64,000 nt of DNA from the NCBI GenBank assembly GCA_016211185.1, contig JACQST010000043.1:1489-65488 (forward strand), given 5' to 3'. A program made the position numbers and the translations under genes. Positions within the stretch are counted from its first letter, which is position 1; each line of letters opens with the position of its first letter. Shown piece after piece: positions 4,106 through 63,762 of the stretch. The notes under the pieces were generated by a model. That model did not search any database, was not told the origin of the DNA, and saw only the letters and a program-made list of their open reading frames with translations. Source of the DNA: Candidatus Woesearchaeota archaeon. Its GTDB lineage: Archaea; Nanobdellota; Nanobdellia; Woesearchaeales; UBA10216.

Positions 4106-4189
4106 GAGTTTTCTACACGCAAAGGCTATTTATGGTTATTGGTGTTGCCAAGAGAAAGTTTTAAATACGCAGTCTGGTGAGGGCAAAGC

Positions 4190-4375
4190 GTGGTAAGCAA
4201 AAAGGGCTACATAATCAGCTATGGTGACTGGTTCAAGGGCTTTATTATCGGAGCCCTTGTCGGGGCTGTCCTCGCTTATCTTGTGATTAATGGCATATTG
4301 AAGGTTCCGGCGTACACTGCAAAGGACGCTGCTTCAAAGGCCATGCTTCTGCTGCCGCTTGCGAAACGGTTTTGA
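4190..4375 (+). CDS. Small hypothetical membrane protein (61 aa)
   Basis: Single predicted TM helix (GFIIGALVGAVLAYLVINGIL); it fills an intergenic gap. Confidence 0.3.
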   Translation: MVSKKGYIISYGDWFKGFIIGALVGAVLAYLVINGILKVPAYTAKDAASKAMLLLPLAKRF

Positions 4376-4378
4376 AGA

Positions 4379-4798: not shown

Positions 4799-4888
4799 GC
4801 GCTGATTCTGAACCAGCTATTATTTAAACCTTTGCCAAGCTCTTCTTGAGCGTTTTTAGAAAAGTTTTTATAAAGGCCTTGTGAAGGG

Positions 4889-6163
4889 TTGAAGATGAAA
4901 GAGGCAGGCACTTCTGTCAGGGCTATAAGGGTGCTGCTTGTTCTCGCTGTTCTTCTGATTGTTGTTCCTTCTGTGCTGTCTGAGACAATCCTTGAGAGAA
5001 GCCTTAACAGGCTGGGCGTTGACAAGAACCAATTCGATGTCCAGAAGATTTATGACAATTACCAGCCTTTCCTTGACTTTGTTGCTTACGCCATACTCTT
5101 CATAGGCGTCTCCATGATGGGTCTGAAGAAGACCTTTGGGGAATCAACTGTTGTGCCTGTAGTCGTAGGCATGGTTCTTGCGGTTGCCGCTGCCTTTTAC
5201 GCTTCTACCATTAAGTTCAAGCTGGGTGATGAACTTGGTCCCACTGCCCTCCTTATAGGAGTTGGGCTCGTCGGGTTCATGGTGTTTAATGTGTTCAAGG
5301 GCATGAATGTTGACGGGTTTCATTCTGCTGCGTGGGGGATAGTTATTGCTGGGGCTTTGATAGTTCCTGTAGCCGAGAAGGCAATGGCTGGTGTCCCCCA
5401 GGATAGTCTGTTGCGCACGATTTTAGACTGGGCGTATGTTATCCTTACAATTGCAACCCTTGTCCTGATAGTGGGCTTGTTCCGCTCAGTGTTTGGAATG
5501 TGGAGGGGCTCAACGCAGGCAACACAATCCACAGCAGCAACTTCAGCAGCTTCAAATACGCCATGGCCAAGTCACACACCTATGAGTCCAATGGGCGCAA
5601 CAGGCGCTTCTGGGACTCCGCCAACAGGTACAGGGGGAGGTAGTGGTCCGACTGGCAAGCCGCCGAATTTTGATCCCTTCAAGAAGGCACATAAAAACGC
5701 TGATACGATGGCAAAGTCTATGGAGAAGCGGTTAGTTCATAACATAAACGACAAACACCTTAAAAATATAGTTACCGCTTTGTCTGCAGTTCCGGCCAGG
5801 AACACAGATGCAAGCAAAAGCGCAGAAAAAGCCATAAACGAGCTTAAAGAGATAAACAGGGATCTAGATTGGGTGAAAAAATACGTGAGTGTTATGGACG
5901 CTGCTCTCGGTTCTGCATTCAGAAGTTCAAGTTCAGGAAAAGCTTCAATAGTGGCAAAAGGCCTTCTGGAAATCAATCAACAGATAATATTCATGGATTT
6001 AGCTATATCAAAATTATCTGCTCAGTTAGGGGACATGAAAACGGCTCCCGCTGCAACAAAGGTTTCACCCACCGATACAACTATAAAAGCATGTATAGGC
6101 CATGTTAAAGTTATACTGGTTGAACTTAGCAGGATAGAAGTTCAGATCTCTGCTGGACCTTAG
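4889..6163 (+). CDS. Membrane protein with N-terminal multi-TM domain, Ser/Thr/Pro/Gly-rich linker and helical C-terminal domain (paralog 1)
   Basis: The N-terminal 200 aa align clearly with the 6930..8204 protein. Shared segments include VVPSV.S..I...SL.R.GV.K..F.V..IYD.YQPFLDFVAYAILFIG and ADSLL.V..DW.YVIL. The linker is TQSTAATSAASNTPWPSHTPMSPMGATGASGTPPTGTGGGSGPTGKPP. Confidence 0.6.
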   Translation: MKMKEAGTSVRAIRVLLVLAVLLIVVPSVLSETILERSLNRLGVDKNQFDVQKIYDNYQPFLDFVAYAILFIGVSMMGLKKTFGESTVVPVVVGMVLAVAAAFYASTIKFKLGDELGPTALLIGVGLVGFMVFNVFKGMNVDGFHSAAWGIVIAGALIVPVAEKAMAGVPQDSLLRTILDWAYVILTIATLVLIVGLFRSVFGMWRGSTQATQSTAATSAASNTPWPSHTPMSPMGATGASGTPPTGTGGGSGPTGKPPNFDPFKKAHKNADTMAKSMEKRLVHNINDKHLKNIVTALSAVPARNTDASKSAEKAINELKEINRDLDWVKKYVSVMDAALGSAFRSSSSGKASIVAKGLLEINQQIIFMDLAISKLSAQLGDMKTAPAATKVSPTDTTIKACIGHVKVILVELSRIEVQISAGP

Positions 6164-6196
6164 TTGGATGCTTTATGCCTTGGTTGGTTATGCTCT

Positions 6197-6841
6197 ATGG
6201 TCAGGATACCAAAAACACTCGATGAGATTAATGCTAACCTACTGCGGCCTTCAAATGAAAATGCGGCGAGAGATGCAAATTCGATAAAGTACAGGCTCGA
6301 GGGCATTGTAGATGAACTTAGGAATGCCAAGTCTGCTTATGAAGGTTTACCTTCTGCTGTGGATTCTCCACCTGTAAGGGATACTATCCAGTCCACAGGA
6401 AAGCTGAAACAGGTCAAAGTGGCTTTGAAGATAGCAAACTATACTGCGAAAGTTGGCTGGGTAAAATTGAGGGGCACAGAAAAAGAGAGGTTTAAAAGAG
6501 GTATAGATAAAGCCTTGCGGAATGTCAGATTCAGCCTTAACAAAGCTGCCACTAAAATGAGGGAACTGAAGGAGAAAGTTGAATCTATAAAGGGCGTATT
6601 AAATTCATTGCAAAATAGTGAAGCCAAAGTTTACATAAATTCACAAATACAAATCGTTGAACAAAAAAGTAATGCAGTTTTGTTGTTGATAACAGAATTG
6701 GCTGAAAAGGTTAACCTGTTGAATTTTGAAGACTTCGATATTACTGATTTTGATAAGGCCTTGACTGCTGCAGAAAATGCTATCTCGCCGGTAAAAGGAA
6801 TGATACATGCTTTTGCAAATATTGATAGTAAATTAAAATAA
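6197..6841 (+). CDS. Coiled-coil protein (about 215 aa); it may be the C-terminal continuation of 4889..6163, separated from it only by a single TAG
   Basis: The track ORF begins at TTG 6164, immediately after the TAG at 6161..6163 and in the same frame as the upstream gene. The first ATG is at 6197. Helical heptad-like content (KLKQVKVALKIANYTAKVGWVKL...). Confidence 0.45.
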   Translation: MVRIPKTLDEINANLLRPSNENAARDANSIKYRLEGIVDELRNAKSAYEGLPSAVDSPPVRDTIQSTGKLKQVKVALKIANYTAKVGWVKLRGTEKERFKRGIDKALRNVRFSLNKAATKMRELKEKVESIKGVLNSLQNSEAKVYINSQIQIVEQKSNAVLLLITELAEKVNLLNFEDFDITDFDKALTAAENAISPVKGMIHAFANIDSKLK

Positions 6842-6929
6842 GGTGTTAAGCATCAAGCGATATTCATATCAGATATCAGGCAAAGCTTTTTATCCTACAG
6901 GGTTTATGAGCGTTAAAAAAGGTGCTTTG

Positions 6930-8204
6930 ATGAACAAGAGGTTGCTTCAGTTAGTGCTACTTGCAACGATACTTGCGGTTATTGTTCCTTCTGTTGTTTC
7001 CCAGTCAATCATTGACAAGAGCCTTAGCCGCATAGGGGTTAGCAAGGACAAGTTTAACGTCGCAAATATTTATGACAAGTATCAGCCTTTCCTTGACTTT
7101 GTTGCATATGCTATCCTGTTCATTGGGATTGCGACGTTTGCGCTGGGGCAGCATTTCAGGGGCACTGCAACTGTGCCTGTGATGGTTGGCATTATCCTTG
7201 CGATTGCTACTGCTGTGTTTGCCAGCAAGATGAAGCCTCCGTTCATGCTTGCAGACTTGGGGCCTTTTGCCCTTATCATCGGCCTGGGCCTTATTGCCTT
7301 CATGATTTACAGTATGTTTAGGGGCATGGGCATGAATTGGCCGCACGCGGCTGCGTGGGGGCTTTTCCTTGCGGGCGCTGCCCTGCTTCCCATTGCCGAG
7401 AGGGCATTGGCAAGTGTTCCTGCGGACAGCCTTCTCCATGTGATGGCTGACTGGATGTATGTGATTCTTTTCGTTGCAGCTGTTGGCCTTATAATACAGC
7501 TTTTCCAGCTGGTTTTCGGGTTGTGGGGCGGTGGTGCTCAGCCTGCAGGTGCTGCTCCTGCCCCAGGCGCAGCTCCGCCTGCTGGACCGGCTGGGCCAAG
7601 AGCTGGTGCTGCTGCGGCTGCAGGAGGCGGTCCTCCTCCTCCGCCTGGTGGGCCTGGAGCTGGTGCAGCTGGAGCAGGTGGTGGTGCGCCGTATGCTGCT
7701 CCTAACCAGTTGCCACATGTGTTTGAGCCAGCAAGGCAGAGGCTGCAGAGTGCGCTGACTGCCATGAATGCTCATTATGAGCATGTTAGGAACTTACTTA
7801 ACACGTTGCCTGCACCGGCAATGGGTGCTGCCAGGGTTGCCGCTACTAACGGCGCCAGGGCTGTTCTGGGCGGCCCGATTAATGCTGCTGACACCGCAAT
7901 TACTACTGAGCTTAACGCCTTGACAAACCCTGCGCTGCTTAACGCTGCTTTCGTAGACCCGGGGAGGCGGGCGAGGGTTGCGACTGCTTTAGGAAACATA
8001 ATGGCGAGTTATGCTGCTGTGCAGGCCATGCGCACTCATGCTGTTACCACTTTGGGGCCGGCGGGCAGCCCGATAAATACTGCAAACGAGGCCTCGGCAA
8101 TGGGCTATGCTGCTTCTGCACGGGATAATGTTTGGAGTGCTACTGTGCAGACGGAGATGGGGACTATTGTTACACAGGTGCACGCGGCAATGGTTGGGCC
8201 TTAG
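6930..8204 (+). CDS. Membrane protein with N-terminal multi-TM domain, Ala/Gly/Pro-rich linker and Ala-rich C-terminal domain (paralog 2)
   Basis: Paralog of 4889..6163 in the TM domain. The linker is GAQPAGAAPAPGAAPPAGPAGPRAGAAAAAGGGPPPPPGGPGAGAAGAGGG. Start chosen at MNKRLLQLVLL; the track start at 6843 is also possible. Confidence 0.6.
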   Translation: MNKRLLQLVLLATILAVIVPSVVSQSIIDKSLSRIGVSKDKFNVANIYDKYQPFLDFVAYAILFIGIATFALGQHFRGTATVPVMVGIILAIATAVFASKMKPPFMLADLGPFALIIGLGLIAFMIYSMFRGMGMNWPHAAAWGLFLAGAALLPIAERALASVPADSLLHVMADWMYVILFVAAVGLIIQLFQLVFGLWGGGAQPAGAAPAPGAAPPAGPAGPRAGAAAAAGGGPPPPPGGPGAGAAGAGGGAPYAAPNQLPHVFEPARQRLQSALTAMNAHYEHVRNLLNTLPAPAMGAARVAATNGARAVLGGPINAADTAITTELNALTNPALLNAAFVDPGRRARVATALGNIMASYAAVQAMRTHAVTTLGPAGSPINTANEASAMGYAASARDNVWSATVQTEMGTIVTQVHAAMVGP

Positions 8205-26510: not shown

Positions 26511-26909
26511 TCAAGCATCGCCAAGTCTGAGACCGGGAATATTTTTAAAATCCTTGAGGTTCCGCGTCAGGAGAACATTATTGTTTTCCTTGCATATGCT
26601 TGCTATCATTAAGTCTATTTCCTGTGTGATGAGTCCTCTTGATTTGAGGAACGCATAATCCCGGCCAAATATAAGGCAGCTGTGCTTTGAATGTTGAAGC
26701 AAGTTGACACTTTCAAGAAACCTGTTGACAAAACTCAGTCCCTCTTCAGGTTTTACAGACATAAATGCGCCTTTATATAGCTCGCAGAGGGTTAAGGGAG
26801 TTATGCTTATATCGGCTTCCATGTTCTGCAGAAGGCTTAATCTTTTTACTGCCGAGCTTTCTCCTCTGATAAAATCAATGGCAAAATCTGTATCGAGGCA
26901 GTACATCAA
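26511..26909 (-). CDS. vapC: PIN-domain toxin VapC
   Basis: MMYCLDTDFAIDFIRG...; 132 aa; overlaps the upstream antitoxin by 4 nt. Confidence 0.75.
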   Translation of the reverse strand: MMYCLDTDFAIDFIRGESSAVKRLSLLQNMEADISITPLTLCELYKGAFMSVKPEEGLSFVNRFLESVNLLQHSKHSCLIFGRDYAFLKSRGLITQEIDLMIASICKENNNVLLTRNLKDFKNIPGLRLGDA

Positions 26910-27136
26910 AACCCTACCTTCCGTAATTTAAACTTTTTCCTATCCTCATAGATAGTCCTCTTGATGGTTTCAAGTTCTTGATTTCCTCCAGGCCATTTTC
27001 CCGCAAGCTCAAGAAGGGACTTCTTTTTTTCAGTTGACGCAATTCTGTTGACTACATCAGAGAACGATTCACCTTCCTTCTTCAAAGATTTTAGGCATGT
27101 GTAGGCTTCATCCGAAAGCGAGATTACCTTGGTCAT
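26906..27136 (-). CDS. vapB: VapB-type antitoxin (archaeal)
   Basis: MTKVISLSDEAYTCLKSLKKEGESFSDVVNRI matches the common archaeal VapB-like antitoxin; translationally coupled to vapC. The start was refined from the track. Confidence 0.6.
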   Translation of the reverse strand: MTKVISLSDEAYTCLKSLKKEGESFSDVVNRIASTEKKKSLLELAGKWPGGNQELETIKRTIYEDRKKFKLRKVGF

Positions 27137-27192
27137 TAAGTGCATGTATGCATGCATGTATATAAATTTACCGTTCCAGAAGTTTCCGAACA

Positions 27193-27438
27193 TCAAGACT
27201 TTTTGTATGTAACGTTGAGATATGCAGAGTCTATATCAGTTTTCCCGCCAGGTGTTACAAGGATTTGTGCAATGCCCTTGTTTATCATAGGGTTAAGTGT
27301 GGCTGTTTTTCTTTCCCTGACAAAGTCATCACAATGTACATAATAGTCAGGTATGGGTTTCCATTCGTCGAACTCTGTAAGTGTGTACATAGAAAAAACA
27401 TAAGTGCACAGAACATCAACAACCGCTTTTGTCTCCAC
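27193..27438 (-). CDS. Hypothetical protein (81 aa)
   Basis: Track ORF in an AT-rich islet with no recognisable domain. Confidence 0.35.
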   Translation of the reverse strand: METKAVVDVLCTYVFSMYTLTEFDEWKPIPDYYVHCDDFVRERKTATLNPMINKGIAQILVTPGGKTDIDSAYLNVTYKKS

Positions 27439-27495: not shown

Positions 27496-27867
27496 TCATT
27501 TCTTCTTGCCTCCGAAGCTCCTTATTAGGTCTATTACGTATTTTCCCTCGTCAACCTTGTATATGAGTGGCTCGTTTTTCATCATCTGGACTAAGTCAAG
27601 TTCGTAGGTTCCTGGCTTCATTATCCTTATTGTTTCTAAGTCAAGCACAACAGGTTCGTGTTCCTCCTGCTCGCCTATTATCTCCATGACGTCCTGCTCT
27701 ATCTGGTCTTTTTCTGTTTCTGTGAGGTTGGCTGAGAGTTCCCTTATCCTGTCAAGCTTTTCCTTTTTTATGAAGAAGAACAGCTTGCCTCCACAGGGGC
27801 ATCCCTTGAGGACTTCCTCTGCCTTGTCTTCATAGAACGTGTTGCATCGCACGCATTGGTGGGGCAT
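27496..27867 (-). CDS. Zn-ribbon protein (DUF2072-like); third gene of a GTPase/DUF2073/Zn-ribbon triad
   Basis: MPHQCVRCNTFYEDKAEEVLKGCPCGGKLFFF is a CxxC...CxC ribbon; an acidic middle and a C-terminal beta-rich domain follow. Confidence 0.55.
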   Translation of the reverse strand: MPHQCVRCNTFYEDKAEEVLKGCPCGGKLFFFIKKEKLDRIRELSANLTETEKDQIEQDVMEIIGEQEEHEPVVLDLETIRIMKPGTYELDLVQMMKNEPLIYKVDEGKYVIDLIRSFGGKKK

Positions 27868-35827: not shown

Positions 35828-35937
35828 GAACTTTATACGAGCCTGCGGGGACTTTCGTAGCTGCGCTGAATTCGAACCCCGAACCGACAGCTTAGGAGGC
35901 TGTCGCCCTTTCCGGGAAAGTTTCTATCCAGATTAGG
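35828..35937 (-). tRNA. Putative tRNA-Arg(CCU) with two non-canonical introns (about 16 nt in the D-arm, about 19 nt in the T-arm)
   Basis: Minus strand: acceptor GAGCCTG/CAGGCTC, D-loop AATCTGGATA, anticodon stem-loop ACAGC-CTCCTAA-GCTGT, T-arm CGGGG-TTCGAAT-[19-nt insert]-CCCCG. A palindromic 16-nt insert AAACTTTCCCGGAAAG sits in the D-arm. The mature length is about 75 nt. Confidence 0.45.
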
Positions 35938-36033
35938 CTACAGGCTCGCGGATTAATGTTTATTAATGATTATTTAAAAAGGTTCTTAATTTGCATTTGG
36001 CGAATGAGTTAGAAGGCTGGCGGTTGCTCGCTC

Positions 36034-36585
36034 CTACATCAGCTTTATGATTGCAGGGGCGAATCTGGTAAATAGTAGTATGTTGAAGAGCACGTTTGAG
36101 CCTACGTATATTGCCCCGTAAAGCAGTGTGCCGCCTGTTGCAAGCTGGATTGGCGCGGTTATTGCGTGATAGGCTATGACCATGGTTATCCCGAGGGCTG
36201 TTATGTTCCAGTTTGAGAATAGGTCGGCAAGCACTGCTATTACTGCTATTCCGAGTAGGGACGGCATTGCTGTGTGGTCAAGCTTTTCCGAGAGTATCTT
36301 GCTGGCGAGTGTCGATATGATGCCTGTTGCAAGCCCTATGACTGCTCCGTAGCTGGCTGCTGTGAGTATGGTTGAGAATTTTATGAGCTCGAAGTTGATT
36401 GGGCTCTTGAAGAAGTTGTGGTAAAAGGTGGAGACTGTTGCTATTATCAGAAGCGATGTCACGAAGAATATTATGTTAAGTTTCCTTCCGAAGATTAGGA
36501 TGACTGCAAGCACTGCTATTGTGGCTATGAAAAGCTTAAGGTAGTATGGCTTTAGGGTTCTGTTGAGTTTCGAAAGGTTTTTCAT
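36034..36585 (-). CDS. Hypothetical membrane protein (183 aa); paralog of 38133..38690
   Basis: Shares STFYHNFFKSPINFELIK...TIL.A.Y.AV.G...GI.STL.S...LDH with the paralog. Confidence 0.55.
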   Translation of the reverse strand: MKNLSKLNRTLKPYYLKLFIATIAVLAVILIFGRKLNIIFFVTSLLIIATVSTFYHNFFKSPINFELIKFSTILTAASYGAVIGLATGIISTLASKILSEKLDHTAMPSLLGIAVIAVLADLFSNWNITALGITMVIAYHAITAPIQLATGGTLLYGAIYVGSNVLFNILLFTRFAPAIIKLM

Positions 36586-38132: not shown

Positions 38133-38690
38133 TCATTGCATGGCTTTCAATGCCTGGCTGAGGATTGGCTCAAAGGCTAAGAGGATTGCGGCATTGAATA
38201 TGATGTTTGTTGCCGCATACACTGCAACGAAAGAAGGCCTGTCACCTGTCCATATGCTCACAGGTGCTGTGAGCGCGTGATATGCCGTTACAAGGACTAT
38301 GCCTTTTACAGCCAGGCTTGTGATGGGGATGCTTTGTGCAATTGCTGCAACAGCTGATATTCCGATGAGTGATATTAATGTCCGGTGGTCAAGTCTGCCT
38401 GTCCACAGCCTGCTCAGGAGCGTGGACGTAATTCCTACAATGATTCCCACGACTGCGTCGTATGCCAGTGCTGACAGTATGGTTGCGGGCTTTATCAGCT
38501 CGATGCTTATGGGGCCGTGGAAGTAGTTGTAGTAGAATGTTGACATGGAGGCAATGGCTATAAGTGCTGCGACCGCAAGAATTATCTTGAGTTTGTATCC
38601 TGCAATTAAGTACAGCAGGGCAAGGGCCGCTGCCAGGATAAGTGCGGTGCGGGAGAGGAATGGCTTGCGCATTCTTTCAGGGCTTTTCAT
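38133..38690 (-). CDS. Hypothetical membrane protein (185 aa); paralog of 36034..36585
   Basis: See the paralog entry. Confidence 0.55.
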   Translation of the reverse strand: MKSPERMRKPFLSRTALILAAALALLYLIAGYKLKIILAVAALIAIASMSTFYYNYFHGPISIELIKPATILSALAYDAVVGIIVGITSTLLSRLWTGRLDHRTLISLIGISAVAAIAQSIPITSLAVKGIVLVTAYHALTAPVSIWTGDRPSFVAVYAATNIIFNAAILLAFEPILSQALKAMQ

Positions 38691-41169: not shown

Positions 41170-41253
41170 AGCCTCCGAGGGGAGTTGCACCCCCGACCTG
41201 CAGATTTCCTAATGGATACAAGTCTGCCGCAATAGCTACTATGCTACGGAGGC
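41170..41253 (-). tRNA. Putative tRNA-Thr(UGU) with an 11-nt intron at the canonical 37/38 position
   Basis: Minus strand GCCTCCG-TA-GCA..TGC-G-GCAGA-CTTGTA[TCCATTAGGAA]A-TCTGC-AGGTC-GGGGG-TGCAACT-CCCCT-CGGAGGC-T. The acceptor stem pairs perfectly; the anticodon is TGT. Confidence 0.5.
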
Positions 41254-41379
41254 GTTTCGTGGGATTTCGTGGAGCTTGCGAAGCAATGCTCCACTTAAAT
41301 AGTTTTGGTCCAGCTTTACTAAAAGATGGAGCTGGTATGCTACGGAGGCGTTTCGTGGGATTTCGTGGAGCTTGCGAAG
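41230..41379. repeat. Direct repeat of about 50 bp (2 mismatches) duplicating the 5' 24 nt of tRNA-Thr plus 30 nt of its leader
   Basis: AGCTacTATGCTACGGAGGCGTTTCGTGGGATTTCGTGGAGCTTGCGAAG at 41230..41283 and again, with gg in place of ac, at 41326..41379. Inside it TTTCGTGG is tandemly repeated, and a TTATATATAA TATA-like box lies just beyond the second copy. Confidence 0.55.
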
Positions 41380-41397
41380 AAATTCTGTTATATATAA

Positions 41398-46368: not shown

Positions 46369-49300
46369 TCAGCCCATGTAGGATGGCTTTTCGTCCTTTA
46401 TCTGTCTTGCCCTTGCCTGCCTTACCTGGTCTCTTATGCTTTCATATACCTCTTCTGTTTCTTTTGACACTGATGGCTTTATTTTCTTGAGGGATTCCTC
46501 GAAGTTTTTTGCAGTTACGGACTTCGCGTTCATGTCTTTCCTTAGTGCAAGTATCGCGGCTTCCCTGCAGACTGCCTCTATGTCTGCTCCTACGTATCCC
46601 TGGGTTTCTTCTGACAGCTGGTTTATGTTGACTTCCTTGAGGGGCATGTTCTTTGCGTGCACCCTGAAGATTTCTGTGCGGGCTTCCTGGTCAGGGACTG
46701 GTGTCAGTATTATCCTGTCGAATCTTCCCGGCCTGAGTAGTGCGGGGTCTATCATGTCTGGCCTGTTTGTGGCAGCTATCACGACGACGTCATACAGGTC
46801 CTCGAGTCCGTCTATTTCTGTTAGGAGCTGGTTTACTACTCTTTCTGTTGAGTGGCTGTCTGATGACATTCCGCGCCTTGGCGCTAGGCTGTCTACTTCG
46901 TCAAAGAAAACTATTGTGGGGGATGTCTGCCTGGCTTTCTTGAATATCTCCCTTACTGCCTTTTCGCTTTCGCCAAGCCATTTTGAGAGCAGTTCCGGGC
47001 CTTTTACCTGTATGAAGTTGGCTTCGCTTTCTGTTGCTACGGCCTTTGCAAGCAGGGTTTTTCCTGTTCCGGGCTCTCCGTAGAGGAGTATTCCCTTTGG
47101 CGGCTTGACTCCGAGCCTCTTGAATGCGTCGCCGTGCTTTATTGGCCACTCCACAGCTTCTATTAGTTCCTGCTTTACGTCTTCGAGGCCTCCTATGTCT
47201 GTCCATTTTATGGTTGGGACTTCGACAAGGACTTCCCTCATTGCTGAAGGCCTTACGACTTTGAGGGCTTCCTTGAAGTCCTTTCTTGTTATCATGAGCT
47301 TTTCAAGCAGTTCTTTTGGTATCGGCTCGTCTTCCTGGAGCTTGAGTTCTGGAAGTACTCTTCTTAGGACTATCATGGCCGCTTCCTTGCAGAGGGCTGC
47401 AAGGTCTGCTCCCACAAATCCGTGCGTTATGGCTGCTATTTCTTTCAGGTTGACGTTTTTTGACAGCGGCATGTTTCTTGTGTGTATCTTGAGTATGTCG
47501 ACTCTTCCCTCTTTTGAGGGAACGCCTATCTCTATTTCCCGGTCAAACCTTCCCGGTCTTCTGAGCGCAGGGTCGAGCAGGTTCGGTACGTTTGACGCTG
47601 CTATGACTATTACCTTTCCCCTGCTCTTTAGGCCGTCCATTAGCGCAAGCAGCTGGGCCACAACCCTTCTTTCGACTTCTCCGTGGACTTCTTCCCTTTT
47701 TGAGGCTATTGCGTCTGTCTCATCTATGAATATTATGCTCGGTGCGTTCTTTTCTGCTTCTTCGAATTTCTTGCGGAGGTTTTGCTCTGACTGGCCATAA
47801 TATTTGCTATTATGAAGTAGTAACAATCCCGATGTCATAAAGCTGTCATCTTCAACTGTAAAATCATATAGCTCCTGTTCGCCTGCATAGCTTATTGATT
47901 CTATCCACTCCCATGCAATATCCTTCCTTGTCAGCAGCTCATATTCCCTTTTTATGGCAGGGGTCAAGGCGTTGTTTCTGGAAGCTATTTTGTACAGCTT
48001 GCCGAGAGCATGCTCAGTGAATTTAGCCTTCCTGCAAACATAAATGTCATTATTCCTGCATTCTGAATAAGGAAGCCTTTTCCTTACAGACTCTATCAGC
48101 AACCGGGGTTCAGGTATATGCTCAGAATGCCTGTTTGTGGATCTGAGTTTTGAAAGCCTCGCCCTTTTCTTCAGGCTGGCCGGAACAATAAGTTTTCTGA
48201 ACTCTTCCCGTCCCTTATTTCCCTTTGTCGCCAGTTCGTACATCATTCCGAGACGGGTTTTATGCTTGTTGAGCTTTGTTGGGATGGAAAGCTTTAGCTG
48301 CATCAGAGTCTGCATTTCCTGAAGAAACCCATATGAGGAACTGTTGAGTTTCGGAGTAGGGTAATTCCCATTCATTGATACCGTTCCATCACCATCAAAA
48401 TATCCCTTGACAAATGCCGCCACTTCCTCTTTTGGCAATGAATAAAAGAGCGGGGGTATTGCGGGATTTCTTTTTCCATGAAGCATGCCGGATTCCTTGA
48501 TTAAGGCCGCAAGGGTCTTTGAGTAGACTATTACTCTTCCGTCAGGATACTCTCTTGGGTTGGTGATTGCAAACAGGCTGCGCAACAAATCCTTATATCG
48601 TTCCCTGAGCATCTCATCGTTGTTGGTAAAGGTGATTCCATCCTCAGAAACATATCCTTCAGACATGACCAGTCCAAGGTATTCAAGAAAATCAGGGGAT
48701 GTTTGTTCCGGTATCGTTATCCAGTTACTGCGGGATAGGTTCCTTCCCTTTGGCGCCTTTTTCCCGTTTTTCTTTTCAAGTCCTTCGAGAGAAAGTTTCT
48801 GGCTGGATTCCTCAAGATCTATCTTGTTTACTCTTGCAACGAACTGGCCTTCAGCTAAGTCTTCAAGTTTTTTCCAGACAAGGCCGCCGTTCTCATATAC
48901 CAAGAAAGGCTGGTTCTTTGAGCACATCATCCGAGTTCCGTTGCTAAAAGAAAGCCTGTATGCTGGAGCGATAAGTTTTGCCATATGTGTGATTTTTGAT
49001 TTCGATATTCGGCCCTTGGAATAGGCAAATGTCTTTATCGGCTGTGCAAGCTCAATGACTTTTATTTTATCATCCCTGATTTTTTTCCCCCTTGCATTGT
49101 CAAACATGTCCCTGGCCTTTATGTGTCCTTTGGGATTAGTGAATATTCTTGTATCCCCATCAACGCACATTATCTCCGGGCCATTGATGAGGATGAAGTG
49201 CGCGTTTGTCTCGTTTGCAACTGCCTTTGCGAGGAGCGTCTTTCCAGTTCCGGGTGGCCCATGCAGCAGGACTCCTTTAGGCGCCTCGATTCCGAGCCTC

Positions 49301-50019
49301 TCGAAGATCTCCGGGTGCTTCAGGGGAAGCTCGACCATCTCCCTGATTTTCTTTATCTCTTCCCTGAGGCCGCCTATGTCCTCGTAGGTTACTTCAAGGG
49401 CTGCCTCCTCTGACACCTCGACTGCCTCTGGGTTGAAGACTACCTCTGTTAAGTCGCTCACAATCACAGCCTGCTTCGGCATTGTGTCTACAACGAGGAA
49501 CTTTATGTCCCCAAACCCGAACCCGTAGACGTCCTCGTCAAGCATCCTGAATATGTCTTCGAACGGGCTGTGCGCGAGGGTCGCTCTTCTCCTTGTGCCC
49601 CCACCCAGCGCGACTATGTCTCCCTTCATTAGAACCCTCCCGAGAAGTCCCTGCTTGAACAGGTCTGATGATGCCCTGATTATGATGCCTTTTCTTGCAG
49701 GCGCTATGACAACTTTCTTGGCTTCCTTCACGTCTGCCTTCTGTATCGCTACTGTCTCGCCTATGCTTGTCTTTGTGTTCCTCCTTATTATGCCGTCCAT
49801 CCTTATTATGTTGAGGCCGATGTCTCCAGGGTATGCGCGGTCAGCTATCGCGACTGTTTTCCTTCCGCCTTCTATCTCTATTATGTCCCCTGGCCTGACG
49901 CCTATGTGCTGCATGAAGCTTGTGTCTATCCTCACTATTCCCTTGTTTACGTCGTCCTGCACCGCCTCTGCAACCTTGAGTTTCAGTTCTCGATCAGGCA
50001 TGGGTTCGAGTATTGGCAT
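46369..50019 (-). CDS. cdc48: Cdc48/VCP-like AAA+ ATPase (two AAA domains) interrupted by an intein
   Basis: N-domain [20 protein letters not shown] and two Walker A motifs ([30 protein letters not shown]). The D1 sequence GPEIM | CVDGD...LLLLHN | [30 protein letters not shown] shows a 453-aa insert. Confidence 0.9.
47809..49167 (-). mobile_element. Intein (453 aa) with a LAGLIDADG homing-endonuclease domain, inserted in the Cdc48 D1 domain
   Basis: It begins with Cys (CVDGDTRIF) and ends with HN followed by the extein Ser. LAGLIDADG-like blocks [17 protein letters not shown] and [12 protein letters not shown]. Removing it restores the conserved [30 protein letters not shown] sequence. Confidence 0.8.
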
Positions 50020-56930: not shown

Positions 56931-57089
56931 TGTATTCCTCAGTATTTGTAAGCATGTATGTTAATGTATGTAATTAATGTATGTAATTATTCTGTTTCTG
57001 ATGCATCTCATACTATTTAAACATTCCCATTTAGGCGATTAAGTTATCAAAAGAAAACCTATAAATAGTAGTTTTTGTTTTATTGCTTT

Positions 57090-57365
57090 ATGCCTGAGCG
57101 CTTTTACGAAAAAATAAAGCTGCACATCCTGAAAAAGCTTTTTGATATGCGCTGCTGGATGGGGAAACACGCTAGCATTCATACCATGCAAAAGGGATTG
57201 CCTTCACACGCAAGGGATTCCAAAACAATAAGCAAGGTCATCAGTGAGCTGGCACAAAAGGAATGGATTTTAACAAAGCCAACACATTACGGGCTGGAAT
57301 TATCGCTTAATATCCAAAAGAAAAGAGATATTGAGGAGTTCATAGAGGCGAACTTGGATTTTTAA
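57090..57365 (+). CDS. Winged-helix-like small regulator (hypothetical)
   Basis: Divergent from 56607..56930 across an AT-rich repeat-containing spacer. Start chosen at MPERFYEK. Confidence 0.4.
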   Translation: MPERFYEKIKLHILKKLFDMRCWMGKHASIHTMQKGLPSHARDSKTISKVISELAQKEWILTKPTHYGLELSLNIQKKRDIEEFIEANLDF

Positions 57366-57546
57366 GATTCAATTGGACGAAAAACGAAAGTTTTTTAAGT
57401 AACCTTTACACTGCTTGTAAAAGTATGGGTTCATTAAAAGAAAAGTTACTGGAGTTTCGGGCAGCATTTCCGGATTTACGAGCTTTCTTGGCTCATACAA
57501 CGTCTGCCATAGCCTTTGCGCAGGGCTTATCGGTCTTCTAAGCATA

Positions 57547-57825
57547 TTGGGAATTGTTGTAGCAGGCATGCCGCTATTGTTTCTTACAAAAGTGGCTGTT
57601 TATTTCTGGATTACCTCTGTAGGGCTGCTGTTGCTGATGGCTGTTTTAAAGGCAACAGCCTTAAAGGGGCTTTCCTCCAGAATGCTTGTGCTTAATTCAG
57701 GGTTTATTTTCTTAGGAATTCCTTTCAATCTTGACTATAATGTCCTGTTCAGGATAATAGGTGGGATGCTTATCTCGATCGCGTTAGCTCTAATAATTAA
57801 AGCTAAATGGAGGGATAAAAAATGA
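57547..57825 (+). CDS. Small hypothetical membrane protein (92 aa)
   Basis: Three TM helices; overlaps the next gene by 4 nt. Confidence 0.4.
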   Translation: MGIVVAGMPLLFLTKVAVYFWITSVGLLLLMAVLKATALKGLSSRMLVLNSGFIFLGIPFNLDYNVLFRIIGGMLISIALALIIKAKWRDKK

Positions 57826-58472
57826 AGATTGAAAATGCGCTTCTTTACGGTTGCCTTGCAGTAGCTATCACGGCACTGGTTTTTACGGCATATACTTTTA
57901 CAGCAACAATGCATATGCTCGAAAATAAAGACACGCCCGCGAGTCCAGTAGCTCGCTCTGGAAAAATTCTTTTCGCGGAATTCGACCAAAAAAAAGTGGT
58001 TGGGTTTATGGACTCTAATCACGATGGCCTGTGCGATTTGTGTGGGATGAGGATAGAGGACTGTATTGCTGCCGGAATGCTGGAATGCACAATGGATCCT
58101 AACGCCAGAATAGGGCTTTTGGGAAGCCAGCATGCCCATGCTGACATCAAGGTTTATGTAGGAGGAGAGGAGGTAAACCTTGCTGATCCTAAATATTTTG
58201 TAAAAAGCAGATTTGTGCACGTTGAAAATGACGGTCCGGGAAAGTCAGGGAACATCGTGCATGTCCATTCAAGCGGCATTAGAGTGGGATTTCTCCTTGA
58301 AAGCCTCGGGATAAGCAGCAAGGACCTGAAGGTTTATGTGAATAATGAACCCCAGAAAGCAGGGCTCGAATATGTCATCAGGGACCATGACAGAATCCTT
58401 GTGACAGACAGCTCTGACGAAAGCAGGATAAACAGTCAGATTGGCTCACTGACATCCTTTACCTCACTTTAA
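57822..58472 (+). CDS. Membrane-anchored secreted protein (hypothetical)
   Basis: N-terminal TM anchor, then a His/Cys-containing domain (DSNHDGLCDLCG, HAHADIKVYVGGEEV, NIVHVHSSG). Confidence 0.45.
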   Translation: MKIENALLYGCLAVAITALVFTAYTFTATMHMLENKDTPASPVARSGKILFAEFDQKKVVGFMDSNHDGLCDLCGMRIEDCIAAGMLECTMDPNARIGLLGSQHAHADIKVYVGGEEVNLADPKYFVKSRFVHVENDGPGKSGNIVHVHSSGIRVGFLLESLGISSKDLKVYVNNEPQKAGLEYVIRDHDRILVTDSSDESRINSQIGSLTSFTSL

Positions 58473-58520
58473 CAGGGTAGGCGAAACATTTAAATAATTA
58501 GTTTTCCGGATTTTATGTAA

Positions 58521-59087
58521 ATGCCTCACTCCAACTTTGCTGGTGTCCTGTCTTTTTTCGATAGGATTGGCGTATTTGAGGTTTTGCTTCCTTTTCTTCT
58601 TGTTTTCACGCTTGTGTTTGCGCTGCTTGAGAAGACAAGGATTTTCGGGGTTGAGAAGCTTCCCACTGGTGAGGAGTACACGAGGAAGAATCTTAACGCT
58701 ATGACTGCGTTCTCCATAGCTTTTTTCGTGGTGGCTTCTTCAAGGATTGTTGAGATAATCACTAAGGTTTCTGCCAACATGATTGTGTTGCTGCTGGCTT
58801 CTGTGTTTTTCCTTCTGCTTGTGGGCTCTTTCCATCAGGAGAAGAAGGAGGGATTCTTCCTTGAGAAGGGGTGGAGGACTGTGTTCATGCTTATCATGTT
58901 TGTGGGGCTTGCGGTTATTTTCCTTGATGCGATGAAGATTGGCAGCAGGTCGTGGCTTCAGCAGATTATTGGCTGGCTGCAGGGTTTCGGGACTAATGAC
59001 GTTGTTCCTTCTATTGTTCTTTTGCTTGTGATGATAGGGATAATTGCCTACATTACGCACACGCCCAAGCCTGAGGCTTCCAAATAG
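58521..59087 (+). CDS. Hypothetical polytopic membrane protein, tandem paralog A
   Basis: Shares LLPFLLVFTLVFALLEKTRIFG with B and C. Confidence 0.55.
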   Translation: MPHSNFAGVLSFFDRIGVFEVLLPFLLVFTLVFALLEKTRIFGVEKLPTGEEYTRKNLNAMTAFSIAFFVVASSRIVEIITKVSANMIVLLLASVFFLLLVGSFHQEKKEGFFLEKGWRTVFMLIMFVGLAVIFLDAMKIGSRSWLQQIIGWLQGFGTNDVVPSIVLLLVMIGIIAYITHTPKPEASK

Positions 59088-59140
59088 GTTAAATATTTAA
59101 AGGAGCTATAACCATGTTGTGTCTAAAAGTGGTGATGTGA

Positions 59141-59728
59141 TTGGTTGCTGACGGCTTTAACCGGATTTTCATTGTTCTTGACGAGTTGAACGTTCTTGAC
59201 TCGCTGCTGCCTTTCCTCCTGATATTCACGTTGGTTTATGCTATTATGGAGAAAACCAAGATTATTGGAGAGGGCCGGAAGAATTTCAACGTGATTGTGG
59301 CCCTTATTCTGTCCTTGATGGTGGTTATCCCTCACATTATGGGTAGGTTTCCTCCTGGTCAGGACCCTGTGGTGATTATTAACACGGCTCTTCCGAGCGT
59401 TTCCATAGTGATTGTGGCCATTCTTGCGGTTCTGCTATTAATCGGCATTTTCGGGAAGAACCTCGACATTGCAGGCAGTTCACTTGCAGGCTGGGTCGCG
59501 ATTGGTGCTTTTGCCATTGTTTTCTGGATTTTTGGCTCTGCTGCAGGATGGTTTGGCGAGTTTCCGGCTGTATTCGGCTTCCTGAATGACCCTGATACGC
59601 AGGCTCTCTTGATAATGATACTGGTGTTCGGCCTAATAATAATGTTCATAACGTCTGATAGTGGTGAACGCAGGATTACCGGGCCGTTTGGAAAAATCCT
59701 TGATGCGTTCAGGGGAGCTATCAAGTAG
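59141..59728 (+). CDS. Hypothetical polytopic membrane protein, tandem paralog B
   Basis: LLPFLLIFTLVYAIMEKTKIIG. Confidence 0.55.
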   Translation: MVADGFNRIFIVLDELNVLDSLLPFLLIFTLVYAIMEKTKIIGEGRKNFNVIVALILSLMVVIPHIMGRFPPGQDPVVIINTALPSVSIVIVAILAVLLLIGIFGKNLDIAGSSLAGWVAIGAFAIVFWIFGSAAGWFGEFPAVFGFLNDPDTQALLIMILVFGLIIMFITSDSGERRITGPFGKILDAFRGAIK

Positions 59729-59743
59729 CCCTTTGGTGAAGGG

Positions 59744-60310
59744 TTGAAAATGGCAACTGTTCTTGACCTGTCTGTCCTGAAGACATTTATGCCGGTTTTT
59801 AGCTGGATTTTCGCTTTTCTGCTTGTTTACGGCTTTCTGGAGATGACCCAGATTTTCAGGAACAGGGGCATTCACGCGATGCTTGCCTTTGTTTTTTCTG
59901 TGATGGTGGCTGTTTCAGGAACTGCTACTGCCACGATTGCGGCTATGGCTCCGTGGTTCCTTGTAGTGATTTTTTTTATCTTCATCATTTACCTGATAGG
60001 CAACTTTATGGGGCTGAGCAGCGGTGACATTCTTGGCGCTGTTGGCGGCAAGGGTGCTGTGTGGTGGTTTATTATCATCGGGTTTATCATTCTTGCTGCA
60101 GGGCTTAGCCAGACCTTTGGGCAGAGGCTTCTTGAGGCCCGGCAGGGTGGTGGGGGGAATGAGACCTTTGTTCCTGTTCAGGGCGAGGGCCAGCCGACTC
60201 ACGGCCAGGCTGTCCTTCTTATTCTGACTAACCCGAAGGTTCTTGGAATGCTACTGCTGTTCTTTATCGCAGCCCTGACTGTTTCCCTGATGACAGGGCC
60301 TGTCAAGTAG
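59744..60310 (+). CDS. Hypothetical polytopic membrane protein, tandem paralog C
   Basis: FMPVFSWIFAFLLVYGFLEMTQIF; similar length and topology, with a Gly-rich loop. Confidence 0.5.
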   Translation: MKMATVLDLSVLKTFMPVFSWIFAFLLVYGFLEMTQIFRNRGIHAMLAFVFSVMVAVSGTATATIAAMAPWFLVVIFFIFIIYLIGNFMGLSSGDILGAVGGKGAVWWFIIIGFIILAAGLSQTFGQRLLEARQGGGGNETFVPVQGEGQPTHGQAVLLILTNPKVLGMLLLFFIAALTVSLMTGPVK

Positions 60311-60350
60311 TTGTTTGGCTGCTCAGTATAGAATCTCGGTATAGAATAAG

Positions 60351-61019
60351 TCACTTCTTTTTCAGGTCCTTTACAGCCCTTGACAGCTCGTTGACGTTTT
60401 CTGTGAATGTCGGGAGGAGCTTCTGGAAGACTTTTTCAAGGGCTTTCAGCTCGGAGTTTACGTTTGTGACGTTCTGGTCGTAGTCGTTTATCTTTGACAG
60501 CACTGCTTTCTGGAGCGTGTCGAAGCTCTGCTTTAGGTCCTGCTGTCTCTGCTCAAGAGCCTTTATGTTTGCTTCCATGGTGTTTTTCCAGTCAACTATC
60601 TTGTTTATGTCCTTGAGAAGGTCGTTCCACTTTTCCTCTATTATTGCTTCAGCCACTTCCTCGATTTTTTCCTCGTATGACTGGGTTTGCTGAGGCTGGG
60701 CTGGCTCGTATTCCTGGTATGCCTGCTGAGGCTGCTGTGGCTGGATTTCCTGCGGGGTTTGCTGGTCAAAATATGGTGCGCCGGGTATCTGGTCTCCTGT
60801 GCGGCCTATCTCTGCCTGGTTCAGAGCATCAAATACCTGGTGGGTTTTGTAGCCGTTCCTTTGCAGTGTCTCTATTATTTGCGAGTTTGAAAGTCCTTGC
60901 TGCCTGAGCCTCGTGACTTCGTCGACAGGAGTTATGGGCTGCGGCATGGGCGGTGGCGGAACTTGCTGTGGCTGCTGTTCTGGCGCCTTTTCTTTCTTTC
61001 TTATCTGGAATAGACCCAT
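60351..61019 (-). CDS. Hypothetical protein with a Pro/Gln-rich N-terminus, an HTH-like segment and a C-terminal coiled-coil
   Basis: Track ORF of 222 aa. Confidence 0.4.
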   Translation of the reverse strand: MGLFQIRKKEKAPEQQPQQVPPPPMPQPITPVDEVTRLRQQGLSNSQIIETLQRNGYKTHQVFDALNQAEIGRTGDQIPGAPYFDQQTPQEIQPQQPQQAYQEYEPAQPQQTQSYEEKIEEVAEAIIEEKWNDLLKDINKIVDWKNTMEANIKALEQRQQDLKQSFDTLQKAVLSKINDYDQNVTNVNSELKALEKVFQKLLPTFTENVNELSRAVKDLKKK

Positions 61020-61066
61020 GTTGCGTTATCTGCTCGCGGGAGCGCTGTTTTTAAAATTTGCGTTAT

Positions 61067-61453
61067 TCATTTCGTTATTTCTTCTGCTGCTCGCTTGGCT
61101 ATCTTCTCGGCTTCGCTTCTGGTTATGAAGTTTACTGGCTCCCACAGGTTCAGGTATTTTTTTAGAACGTCAACATCCTCTCTTTTTGCAAGCGTGTGCA
61201 GCTCTTTTATTATGAATTCTATCTTCTCGTTGAGGTCTTCTGCCTGCTTCTTCAGGTCTGTTATTTCTGAGTTGAGTGTCTTGAACTCTGAGTGGGCTTT
61301 CTTGTTGGCTGTTATGACGTTTTCCTCAAGCACCTGTACTCTCCTTATGAGGTTGTTGTAGCGCTCTTCAAGGTTTCTGACTGCCCTGCCGGAATCTGGC
61401 GCGGCTGTGTCTTGTAAGGCTGGTTGCATTTTTAGGAACATATTTATATACAT
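61067..61453 (-). CDS. Hypothetical coiled-coil protein (128 aa)
   Basis: Track ORF. Confidence 0.4.
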   Translation of the reverse strand: MYINMFLKMQPALQDTAAPDSGRAVRNLEERYNNLIRRVQVLEENVITANKKAHSEFKTLNSEITDLKKQAEDLNEKIEFIIKELHTLAKREDVDVLKKYLNLWEPVNFITRSEAEKIAKRAAEEITK

Positions 61454-61476
61454 TTGTTGGCTAATTAAATGTTTCG

Positions 61477-63762
61477 GTGGGCTTGATGGATATCGATAAA
61501 GAGGGCTGTTTCGGCTGGGACTTGCTGAGGGAGGGCGAGGAGAATGTGCTCAGGGTTAACTGTGAGCAGTGCTCGTTTTTCCCATCGATTGAGGACAATC
61601 CTCTGGTGATGTCAAAGCTTATGGATATCCTGATTTCTAACCAGGGTGTTAGCAGGATAATCTTTTACCAGAAGCGTGACTATGAGTATGATTATGAGCA
61701 GACCAGGCTGCTTACAGAGGTAGCCCGGATTCAGAACCGGCTGGTTAAGGGCGGCTTTGCTGCCCACAGGGTGTTTGGGGTTAACGCGAAGGCTGACCAG
61801 AGGTATGTGGAACTGCAGAACATGGTTCATAACGTCCTCAAGAGCGACCCTGTAAGTGCGTTTGTTGAGATTAAGAGGATTCATAGGCGCGAGGTTTTAA
61901 GGCTTGAGTCGCTTCCGCAGGAGTATGTTGAGAGGCAGAAGGCCTATGTTGCGCTTCTTGAGGGCGTCGCGAGGGTTATTGAAGATTCTCGCCTGGTAAG
62001 GCTCGCCGGGCCTTTCCTTGCAGGCCACAAGCCCGGTGACAGAGCTGTCTACAGGGAGCTGTTCAGGCCCATTACAAAGCCTGACTTCATGTTTACCAAG
62101 CTGATGGCTGCGTTTCCTGCTGAGGCTGAGGAGATTGACAGCTACACTGTGAAGGACAGCGAGGTTGCGATTTTCAGGGTCCCTGACACAATCAAGCTTC
62201 TTTATCATTTGACCCCTCCTGAGTTCAGGCTTTCTGAGGAGAAGTATGAGATTCTTGATGCTGCCCGCTCCATCATCTCCGAGCACAAGCCGCAGAAGTC
62301 TGAGTTTGTCGACCCTGAGCGGCTGAGGCAGGTGTTTTCGAATGTTGGCTCAGACCTTATTGAGGAGCTTTCTTCTTCCAGAGGCGTCAAGCTGAGGAAC
62401 TCCGAAGTAGGGGAATTGACCCGCATCCTTGTCCGCCACACGATTGGTTTCGGGCTGATTGACGTGCTTCTTCAGGACGAGAAGGTTCAGGACATCACAG
62501 TAAACAGTCCCATGGGCATGAATCCTGTCTTTCTTGTGCATGAGTCTTATGAGGACTGCTTTACCAACATCATCCCTTCGCAGAGCGAGGGTGAGTCATG
62601 GGGGTCTAAGCTGAGGCTGCTTTCCGGCCGGCCGCTTGATGAAGCCAATCCCATACTCGACACTGAGCTGGTCATTCCGAATGCGAGGGCGAGGGTTGCA
62701 GTTATAGGCCCTCCTCTTGACCCTTCTGGGCTTGCGTACGCGTTCAGGCGCCACAGGGACAAGCCGTGGACTTTGCCCCTGTTTGTGAAGCAGAGGATGC
62801 TGTCGCCTCTGGCTGCTGGGCTGCTGAGCTTTGTGATTGATGGCTCCAGGACACTGCTGATTGCAGGGACGAGGAGTGCTGGAAAGACTTCTTTACTCGG
62901 AGCTTTGATGACTGAAATCATGAGGAAGCACAGGCTGATTACTATTGAGGACACGCTTGAGTTGCCTGTTTCTGCTTTGAAGGAGCTTGGCTACAACATC
63001 CAGTCTATGAAGGTTGCGAGTGCCATGACCCGGGGCACTACTGAGGTTCCGGCTGATGAGGGTATCAGGACAACCCTTAGGCTGGGCGACTCAGGGCTTA
63101 TCGTGGGGGAAGTGAGGTCTGTTGAGGCCAAGGCCCTGTATGAGGCCATGAGGGTTGGAGCGCTCGCCAATGTTGTTGCTGGAACCATTCATGGCGATTC
63201 GCCCTTCGGTATCTTTGACAGGGTTGTCAATGACCTTGGTGTTCCGAGGACTTCGTTCAAGGCCACAGATATAATAGTGGTGGCAAATCCAATAAGGAGC
63301 GCTGACGGGCTTCACAGGTGGAGGAGGGTTACCCAGATAACAGAGGTTGGAAAGTTTTGGGTGGATGACCCGCTCATAGAGAAGGGCTTCAGGGACCTGA
63401 TGAAGTATAACTCTGAAACAGACACTGTTGAGCCGACAGCAGACCTCCTTAACGGTGATAGCGACATATTGAAGGCGATTGCCGGAAACGTGAAGGAGTG
63501 GTCTGGGAGCTGGGATGCTGTTTGGGATAATGTGCTTTTGAGGGCGAAGATGAAGGAGGCGCTGATAGGCTATTCCGACAGGCTTGGAATGCCTGACATG
63601 CTTGAGGCAGGGTTCGTAATTCAGGCAAATGATGAGTTTCACAGGGTTGCTGAGTCTGTGAGGGAGGAGCTGGGCTTTCTGGACAGCAAGAGGATTTTCT
63701 TTGATTGGAATGAGTGGCTCAAGAGGAAGGTCAAGAAGGCGAGCATTGCCAGCGAGGTATGA
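61477..63762 (+). CDS. Type IV filament assembly ATPase (GspE/VirB11/FlaI superfamily) with a long N-terminal extension
   Basis: AGTRSAGKTSLLGALM Walker A, DSGLIVGEVR Walker B/Asp box, and conserved His/Glu boxes; 761 aa. Confidence 0.8.
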   Translation: MGLMDIDKEGCFGWDLLREGEENVLRVNCEQCSFFPSIEDNPLVMSKLMDILISNQGVSRIIFYQKRDYEYDYEQTRLLTEVARIQNRLVKGGFAAHRVFGVNAKADQRYVELQNMVHNVLKSDPVSAFVEIKRIHRREVLRLESLPQEYVERQKAYVALLEGVARVIEDSRLVRLAGPFLAGHKPGDRAVYRELFRPITKPDFMFTKLMAAFPAEAEEIDSYTVKDSEVAIFRVPDTIKLLYHLTPPEFRLSEEKYEILDAARSIISEHKPQKSEFVDPERLRQVFSNVGSDLIEELSSSRGVKLRNSEVGELTRILVRHTIGFGLIDVLLQDEKVQDITVNSPMGMNPVFLVHESYEDCFTNIIPSQSEGESWGSKLRLLSGRPLDEANPILDTELVIPNARARVAVIGPPLDPSGLAYAFRRHRDKPWTLPLFVKQRMLSPLAAGLLSFVIDGSRTLLIAGTRSAGKTSLLGALMTEIMRKHRLITIEDTLELPVSALKELGYNIQSMKVASAMTRGTTEVPADEGIRTTLRLGDSGLIVGEVRSVEAKALYEAMRVGALANVVAGTIHGDSPFGIFDRVVNDLGVPRTSFKATDIIVVANPIRSADGLHRWRRVTQITEVGKFWVDDPLIEKGFRDLMKYNSETDTVEPTADLLNGDSDILKAIAGNVKEWSGSWDAVWDNVLLRAKMKEALIGYSDRLGMPDMLEAGFVIQANDEFHRVAESVREELGFLDSKRIFFDWNEWLKRKVKKASIASEV

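Follow-up and report, generated by a model that had tools for sequence, protein, structure and literature searches.

The multi-intron tRNA genes of the Thermoproteales were reportedly described by Sugahara et al. in 2008. In these Crenarchaeota, several BHB-type introns, up to three per gene, interrupt the D-loop, the T-loop and other sites, and the genes are missed by simple tRNA finders. Splicing is carried out by a broad-specificity EndA, an (alpha-beta)2 enzyme carrying a Crenarchaea-specific loop, and the non-canonical introns are regarded as having been acquired recently through transposition. In Pyrobaculum calidifontis, 71 introns in 46 tRNA genes have been counted, a figure cited in PMC8450103. 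[quoted passage not shown] The archaeal BHB motif itself is a 4-bp helix with 3-nt bulges on opposite strands (summarised in PMC6379350).

Non-canonical and multiple tRNA introns, the 59/60 position included, are documented in archaea including DPANN lineages (PMC3239211, PMC5829648, PMC6379350). In ARMAN-2 (Candidatus Micrarchaeum), pre-tRNA-Cys(GCA) carries an intron at 59/60 and pre-tRNA-Pro(GGG) carries two T-loop introns (Fujishima et al. 2011, PMC3239211), the 59/60 site being used in both precursors (PMC3239211). Kaneta et al. 2018 (PMC5829648) attributed to several DPANN lineages an alpha4 EndA with an 'L3' loop and an increased disruption of tRNA genes. Their survey, in which a Woesearchaeota MAG was included, reported non-canonical and multiple introns and considered that incomplete tRNA sets probably hide further disrupted genes; the paper also mentions the pre-tRNA-Glu(UUC) of Methanopyrus kandleri, which contains multiple introns, including non-canonical relaxed-BHB introns (PMC5829648).

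The locus reported here is located in a window of 64,000 nucleotides (the whole stretch of DNA that was analysed) from a contig labelled Candidatus Woesearchaeota archaeon. On the basis of its sequence features, it is very probably a functional tRNA-Arg(CCU) gene of a DPANN archaeon, reading AGG codons and containing two archaeal-type introns that would be spliced by proteins. It is one of the hidden disrupted genes that the above census considers probable. As in ARMAN-2, the host belongs to DPANN, the introns are short, show a BHB or relaxed-BHB motif at non-canonical sites and include one at the 59/60 T-loop site, and more than one intron is present per gene; unlike in ARMAN-2, the second intron is in the D-loop, and both the tRNA identity and the lineage (Iainarchaeota/Woesearchaeota-labelled groundwater MAGs) are different. 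With the Thermoproteales genes it shares the several BHB-type introns and the failure of simple tRNA finders, but its host is not a crenarchaeon and its 59/60 intron is common to seven deeply diverged orthologues. The M. kandleri gene is similar in its multiple introns, in its relaxed BHB and in belonging to an archaeon outside the TACK group, whereas M. kandleri is a euryarchaeon whose (alpha-beta)2 EndA has no specific loops and cleaves the relaxed motif weakly (PMC5829648). The genomes surveyed by Kaneta et al. 2018 are from the same superphylum; however, that study is a genome-level census, which apparently describes neither the tRNA-Arg(CCU) gene itself nor the series of its orthologues or the positions of its introns (PMC5829648). 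The present locus adds a well-supported DPANN case of multiple non-canonical introns, accompanied by a seven-member orthologue series, and leaves the understanding of how archaeal tRNA introns work unchanged. What is mildly new is that the 59/60 intron has been kept across a deep divergence, together with a D-loop intron that occupies one of two sites separated by 2 nt or is missing altogether.

Read on the minus strand from position 35947 downwards, the 5' part of the gene is laid out as GAGCCTG TA GCCT AATCTGGAT[AGAAACTTTCCCGGAA]A GGGC G ACAGC CTCCTAA GCTGT and the 3' part, down to position 35838, as CGGTT CGGGG TTCGAA[TTCAGCGCAGCTACGAAAG]T CCCCG CAGGCTC G, the inserted segments being given in outer brackets (Table 1). 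All the elements listed in the original prediction were found on this strand, i.e. the acceptor halves GAGCCTG/CAGGCTC, the GG of the D-loop, the CCT anticodon arm ACAGC-CTCCTAA-GCTGT and the T-arm CGGGG-TTCGAAT...CCCCG. The position first given for them, 35828-35937, was 10 nt too low.

Table 1. Position and content of the tRNA-Arg(CCU) gene, of its parts and of the neighbouring elements discussed in the text.
Feature	Coordinates	Strand	Length (nt)	Content
Whole tRNA-Arg(CCU) gene (pre-tRNA body)	35838..35947	-	110	CCA not encoded
TATA-box-like promoter element	35971..35980	-		TTTTTAAATA; about 24-33 nt upstream of tRNA position 1
Exon 1	35926..35947	-	22	tRNA 1-20a: acceptor 5' strand, U8 A9, D-stem 5' strand, most of D-loop
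Intron 1	35910..35925	-	16	AGAAACTTTCCCGGAA; D-loop, between U20a and A21
Exon 2	35871..35909	-	39	A21, D-stem 3' strand, anticodon arm, variable loop, T-stem 5' strand, T-loop 54-59
Anticodon CCT (in exon 2)	35896..35894	-
Intron 2	35852..35870	-	19	TTCAGCGCAGCTACGAAAG; T-loop, site 59/60
Exon 3	35838..35851	-	14	U60, T-stem 3' strand, acceptor 3' strand, discriminator G73
tRNA-Thr(UGU)	41170..41253	-	84	11-nt intron TCCATTAGGAA at canonical 37/38; 51.3 bits with Rfam tRNA in e-value mode

When both inserted segments (nt 23-38 and 78-96 of the 110-mer) were removed, analysis of the edited sequence by ARAGORN gave a perfect 75-nt tRNA-Arg(cct) with a canonical cloverleaf. The spliced molecule contains a 7-bp Watson-Crick acceptor stem, a 4-bp D-stem and 5-bp anticodon and T-stems, with a 10-nt D-loop containing GG, the anticodon loop CUCCUAA, a 5-nt variable loop, the T-loop UUCGAAU and a discriminator G. 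Removal of either segment alone led to a wrong or defective cloverleaf, which agrees with the claim that the tRNA can fold only after a 16-nt and a 19-nt segment have been taken out.

The gene escapes the standard tools. No tRNA was found in the whole window by ARAGORN in its default mode, the unspliced 110-mer gave no ARAGORN match, the tRNA-Arg(CCU) gene was still missed with the intron or relaxed-score options (-i, -ps), and no match was obtained across the window with Rfam at gathering thresholds. With relaxed thresholds, the unspliced locus reached 21.7 bits (E=0.038) with RF00005 (tRNA), i.e. below the gathering score of 29, in an alignment that depends on a false T-arm built from part of intron 2. 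Two other readings of the locus draw on these failures. In the first, the locus would be a decaying pseudogene, a former tRNA-Arg disrupted by two random insertions and out of use, for which its absence from the output of standard tools and the low score of the unspliced sequence could be taken as signs. In the second, it would be an intergenic region that resembles tRNA parts by chance. However, a gene containing two non-canonical introns is expected to score below the threshold, and a fortuitous assembly of tRNA parts is at odds with the perfect 75-nt cloverleaf obtained upon splicing. For the functional gene, the consequence would be that the organism's cognate tRNA for its top arginine codon is invisible both to default ARAGORN and to Rfam at the gathering score, so that MAG annotations of this clade would wrongly look devoid of tRNA-Arg(CCU).

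According to the rule reportedly set out by Marck and Grosjean in 2003, each bulge of the BHB motif is located 3' of its own helix strand and the cut takes place after the second bulge nucleotide. Leaving aside the 2 nt that immediately precede each splice site, the last four exon bases upstream of the 5' site are thus required to pair with the last four intron bases upstream of the 3' site. Among the conditions named as refuting the original prediction was that no BHB-like structure could be drawn at its exon-intron junctions; such structures can be drawn at both of them, in the register that gives the canonical product.

For intron 1, the central helix is formed by CTGG (35931..35928; C17-G19) and CCGG (35915..35912), with 4/4 pairs of which one is G-U, and is accompanied by the bulges AT|A and AA|A and by the inner helix GAA/TTC. 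For intron 2, TTCG (35876..35873; U54-G57) and CGAA (35857..35854) form 4/4 pairs, the bulges are AA|T and AG|T, the 5-bp T-stem serves as the outer helix and AGC/GCT as the inner one. This register places intron 1 between U20a and A21; the inserts, correctly attributed to the D-arm and the T-arm at the outset, are thereby refined to the U20a/A21 site and to the 59/60 site of the T-loop. At each junction, a 4-bp helix is found between two 3-nt bulges with both cuts within the bulges, as in the strict motif or its relaxed forms (hBH, HBh', BHL). Intron 1 is a relaxed motif and not a strict 3-4-3 hBHBh' form, because an internal loop (3x3 or 2x2) lies between its central helix and the D-stem, which is its outer helix. 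Intron 2 is close to the strict hBHBh' form, with a 5' bulge of 3-5 nt and a short inner helix.

The splice registers that are equivalent in sequence gave at most 1/4 central pairs. Shuffled versions of intron 1 gave a 4/4 in-register helix with P=0.023 and those of intron 2 with P=0.039, and these values fell to 0.0018 and 0.0039, respectively, when an inner helix of at least 2 bp was also demanded. Furthermore, the unconstrained minimum free energy (MFE) structure of the 110-nt precursor holds the acceptor stem, the D-stem, the CUGG/CCGG helix and the anticodon arm, as well as the T-stem, the UUCG/CGAA helix and the 3-nt AGU bulge on the 3' side. Within the window, tRNA-Thr(UGU) provides an internal control: its canonical 37/38 intron follows the same register rule, with a CTTG/TAGG helix of 4/4 pairs.

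The 16-nt segment had been described as palindromic. The palindrome CTTTCC/GGAAAG is real, but it is not a splice structure, and it was rejected as a functional structure of intron 1: it is unconserved in the orthologues and absent from the MFE structure of the precursor. The helix that recurs at intron 1 is CUGG/CCGG, and not the palindrome.

Orthologous loci were recovered with a pattern of 30-32 nt taken from the core of exon 2, in five other genome assemblies (GTDB) and in one metagenome contig (JGI), the scan of the metagenomes giving that single locus. The relatives include the assemblies GCA_964504135.1 and GCA_016202305.1, as well as those that contain JACPTG01, JACPTE01, JACPBS01 and CAYJXD01. 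Seven distinct sequences were thus compared: those of the window, of L001 (identical in sequence to L002, L003 and L006), L007, L004, L009, L008 and L005. All seven are located between homologues of the same flanking proteins, in the conserved order p364 - tRNA - p183 - TruD; in L001, for example, a GTPase is followed further on by a 361-aa protein, a gap containing the orthologous tRNA, a 181-aa protein and TruD. The occurrence of the same gene in these assemblies and in the metagenome contig, with conserved synteny, already refutes the reading of the locus as a chance resemblance, whose probability is practically nil. The tRNA-like design of the locus exceeds chance, as given by the shuffling values and by its recurrence in six further distinct orthologues.

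The exons and the inserted segments behave in opposite ways. Whereas the flanking proteins are only 37-61% identical to those of the window, the spliced exons show 1-5 differences in 75 nt (given as 96-99% identity). Exon 1 of the window differs from those of the six other orthologues only at acceptor position 2 (in L009 and L005) and at one D-loop base (in L005), exon 2 carries a single substitution relative to all the orthologues (C versus A, in the variable loop), and exon 3 is conserved, with position 71 changing in step with position 2. The acceptor pair 2-71, whose halves are about 100 nt apart in the gene, covaries as A-U, C-G or U-A, and the 21/21 stem pairs form in every sequence of the spliced alignment. 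This covariation concerns one pair in four distinct sequences, with an observed score reached by 39/500 shuffles, and it is limited to one pair because the exons vary little.

The inserted segments, in contrast, vary both in sequence and in length (15-26 nt), except where they pair with the exons. In the seven orthologues, the central helix is fully paired (4/4) in 12 introns out of 12, in the register from which the common mature tRNA results. The 59/60 intron of the T-loop is present in 7/7 distinct orthologues, with a length of 15-26 nt. These introns are identical in L001 and L007 and otherwise unrelated, apart from the helix strand CGAA, CGGA or TGAA, which pairs with UUCG and is followed by two bases and then by UCCCC; their inner helices vary from gene to gene (GGCA/TGCC in L008, GCAC/GTGC in L005, GCAAAT/ATTTGC in L004). 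In the D-loop, an intron of unrelated sequence with the helix CTGG/CCAG is found at the window's site in L004 and L009, and an intron with the helix ATCT/GGAT is found 2 nt upstream, after G19, in L001 and L007. In L004 and L008, a weak central helix containing G-U pairs is missing from the local MFE structure. As a separate observation, the outer helix of the precursor in L001 (3357-3468, minus strand) and in L007 may also be drawn as a longer D-stem that runs directly into the central helix, giving a stricter BHB than that of the window.

The D-loop intron is absent from L008 and L005. L008 reads GCCTAATCTGGATAGGGCG, which is exactly the junction predicted for the window by splicing, and the D-arm of L005 departs from the predicted splice product by one D-loop base. 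The claim of an archaeal tRNA-Arg(CCU) with two non-canonical interruptions is borne out by these orthologues without D-loop intron, by the conserved exons accompanying unrelated introns, by the BHB register and by the archaeal host.

These comparisons bear on a further reading, in which both segments would be retained and the mature tRNA would have enlarged D- and T-loops, as an expansion-segment tRNA. Against this reading, the segments are conserved neither in sequence nor in length and the one in the D-loop is absent from two orthologues; besides inner hairpins that are specific to each gene, the only constraint common to the segments is pairing with exon bases in the BHB geometry. Moreover, from what is established about tRNA structure, the 19-nt insert between A59 and U60 would disrupt the fold of the T-loop and the elbow formed by the D- and T-loops. 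Retention of the segments is therefore highly improbable, and removal of both as introns is the preferred reading.

The comparison also disagrees with the pseudogene reading. A disused gene is difficult to reconcile with exons that differ at only 1-5 positions in 75, with a compensatory change that preserves pair 2-71 or with random insertions that would keep an in-register splice helix in every case. In addition, the promoter box upstream of the gene is conserved. The TATA-like sequence TTTTTAAA (TTTTAAA) or TTTAAAA starts at -33 to -31 in 6/7 orthologues, and in L005, as judged by eye, TTTTATAA is located at about the same distance; outside this box, the upstream sequence is unconserved among the orthologues. 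Codon usage points in the same direction: in the window ORFs, AGG is the main arginine codon (58% of the Arg codons, 33.7 per 1000), and the CCU anticodon arm of the tRNA-Arg(CCU) gene is the only one present in the window. An ad hoc scan of the window for other hidden tRNAs with an interrupted T-arm returned only this gene. The conserved TATA-like box, the dominance of AGG and the single CCU arm make a decaying pseudogene very unlikely, so that a functional, intron-containing gene is favoured.

We infer transcription, cleavage by EndA and ligation by RtcB from the established archaeal pathway, and the maturation of this functional gene would proceed as follows. First, the TATA box about 32 nt upstream would direct transcription of the gene. 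Within the resulting precursor, C17-G19 of the D-loop would form pairs with CCGG, towards the 3' end of intron 1, and U54-G57 of the T-loop with CGAA, towards that of intron 2. Then, EndA would cut the four bulges after their second nucleotide, leaving 2',3'-cyclic phosphate and 5'-OH ends, and RtcB would join the three exons, with GGAU-AGGG and UUCGAA-UCCCC as the expected junctions. Finally, the ends would be trimmed and, because CCA is not encoded, it would have to be added to give the complete 75-nt tRNA.

The window encodes GatD/GatE, aEF-1alpha, ribosomal protein S10, Elp3, TruD, deoxyhypusine synthase and a CDC48 with an intein, and is therefore part of an archaeal chromosome. TruD is 100% identical to an NCBI protein of a MAG labelled 'Candidatus Woesearchaeota archaeon'; the relatives that come next are only about 45% identical and are labelled Diapherotrites/Iainarchaeum or Woesearchaeota. 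These best matches to DPANN MAGs place the host in the DPANN group. The interrupted tRNA had been announced as informative about its host lineage. The archaeal origin stands, and the lineage is now refined to DPANN and not to a classical multi-intron lineage such as the Thermoproteales.

Pfam scans of the 76 ORFs of at least 70 aa revealed neither EndA nor RtcB in the window. The paralogues of about 180 aa that flank TruD (36034-36585 and 38133-38690) were considered as divergent EndA subunits and rejected, because they are multi-pass membrane proteins. The tRNA-Arg(CCU) gene predicts a broad-specificity splicing endonuclease in the host lineage. ARMAN-2 has an epsilon2 EndA; the EndA of the window organism could be an alpha4 enzyme with an L3 loop (as proposed for DPANN, PMC5829648), an epsilon2 enzyme as in ARMAN-2 or an (alpha-beta)2 enzyme.

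Concerning the history of the two introns, the kinship of the seven genomes was judged from a few flanking proteins. It is plausible, with arguments evenly balanced, that in this family- or order-level DPANN clade the 59/60 intron is old and vertically inherited and the D-loop intron labile. The latter is missing from two orthologues, follows U20a in three and follows G19 in two, and in every version it has an in-register splice helix of its own. If so, the tRNA-Arg(CCU) gene would constitute a natural series for the gain, loss or sliding of introns. The EndA of the clade, possibly of the alpha4 type with L3 loop proposed for DPANN, would also have to accept a relaxed BHB outside the anticodon loop.

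Several other features of the window and of the related loci were noted. The tRNA-Thr(UGU) gene is also missed by ARAGORN in its default mode and is mislabelled as Ser(tga) with the -i option; it is missed by Rfam in gathering mode because of the Rfam speed filters. Its D-loop is devoid of the usual GG and its T-loop is UGCAACU. A 57-nt direct repeat (41234-41290 and 41330-41386, 93% identical, spaced by 96 nt) duplicates, just upstream of this gene, its first 20 nt together with 37 nt of upstream leader, giving the orphan 5' tRNA fragment GCCTCCGTAGCATAccAGCT. An AT-rich, TATA-like stretch was seen by eye in front of each copy. Local duplication may account for the repeat; it could also represent a separate 5' tRNA piece.

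The two paralogous multi-pass membrane proteins of about 183 aa on either side of TruD, both encoded on the minus strand, have no Pfam match. The paralogue proximal to the tRNA is found in all the related loci, and the second copy is found wherever the retrieved locus extends that far. The CDC48/AAA+ ATPase (1216 aa, 46369-50019, minus strand) contains an intein with a LAGLIDADG homing-endonuclease domain (Pfam Intein_splicing and LAGLIDADG_3).

The L005 and L006 contigs bear the name 'uncultured Methanosarcinales archaeon' in the public records. Both agree with the DPANN relatives in gene order and in their proteins, and the name is probably a taxonomic mislabel.

In the window, the regions 1-8200 and 57000-61500 consist of runs of ORFs without Pfam match, e.g. 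the three ORFs of 424, 225 and 453 aa at 4889-8204. The first 4 kb show a very strong negative AT skew, and ARAGORN in relaxed mode gives spurious calls there (1-8200 and 57000-61500). Finally, the stretch 26511-27196 (minus strand) encodes a toxin-antitoxin pair made up of a PIN-domain (VapC-like) toxin and a VapB-like antitoxin, adjoining a homologue of OapC (origin-associated protein) at 27496-27867; the region of this pair and of OapC may be located near a replication origin.
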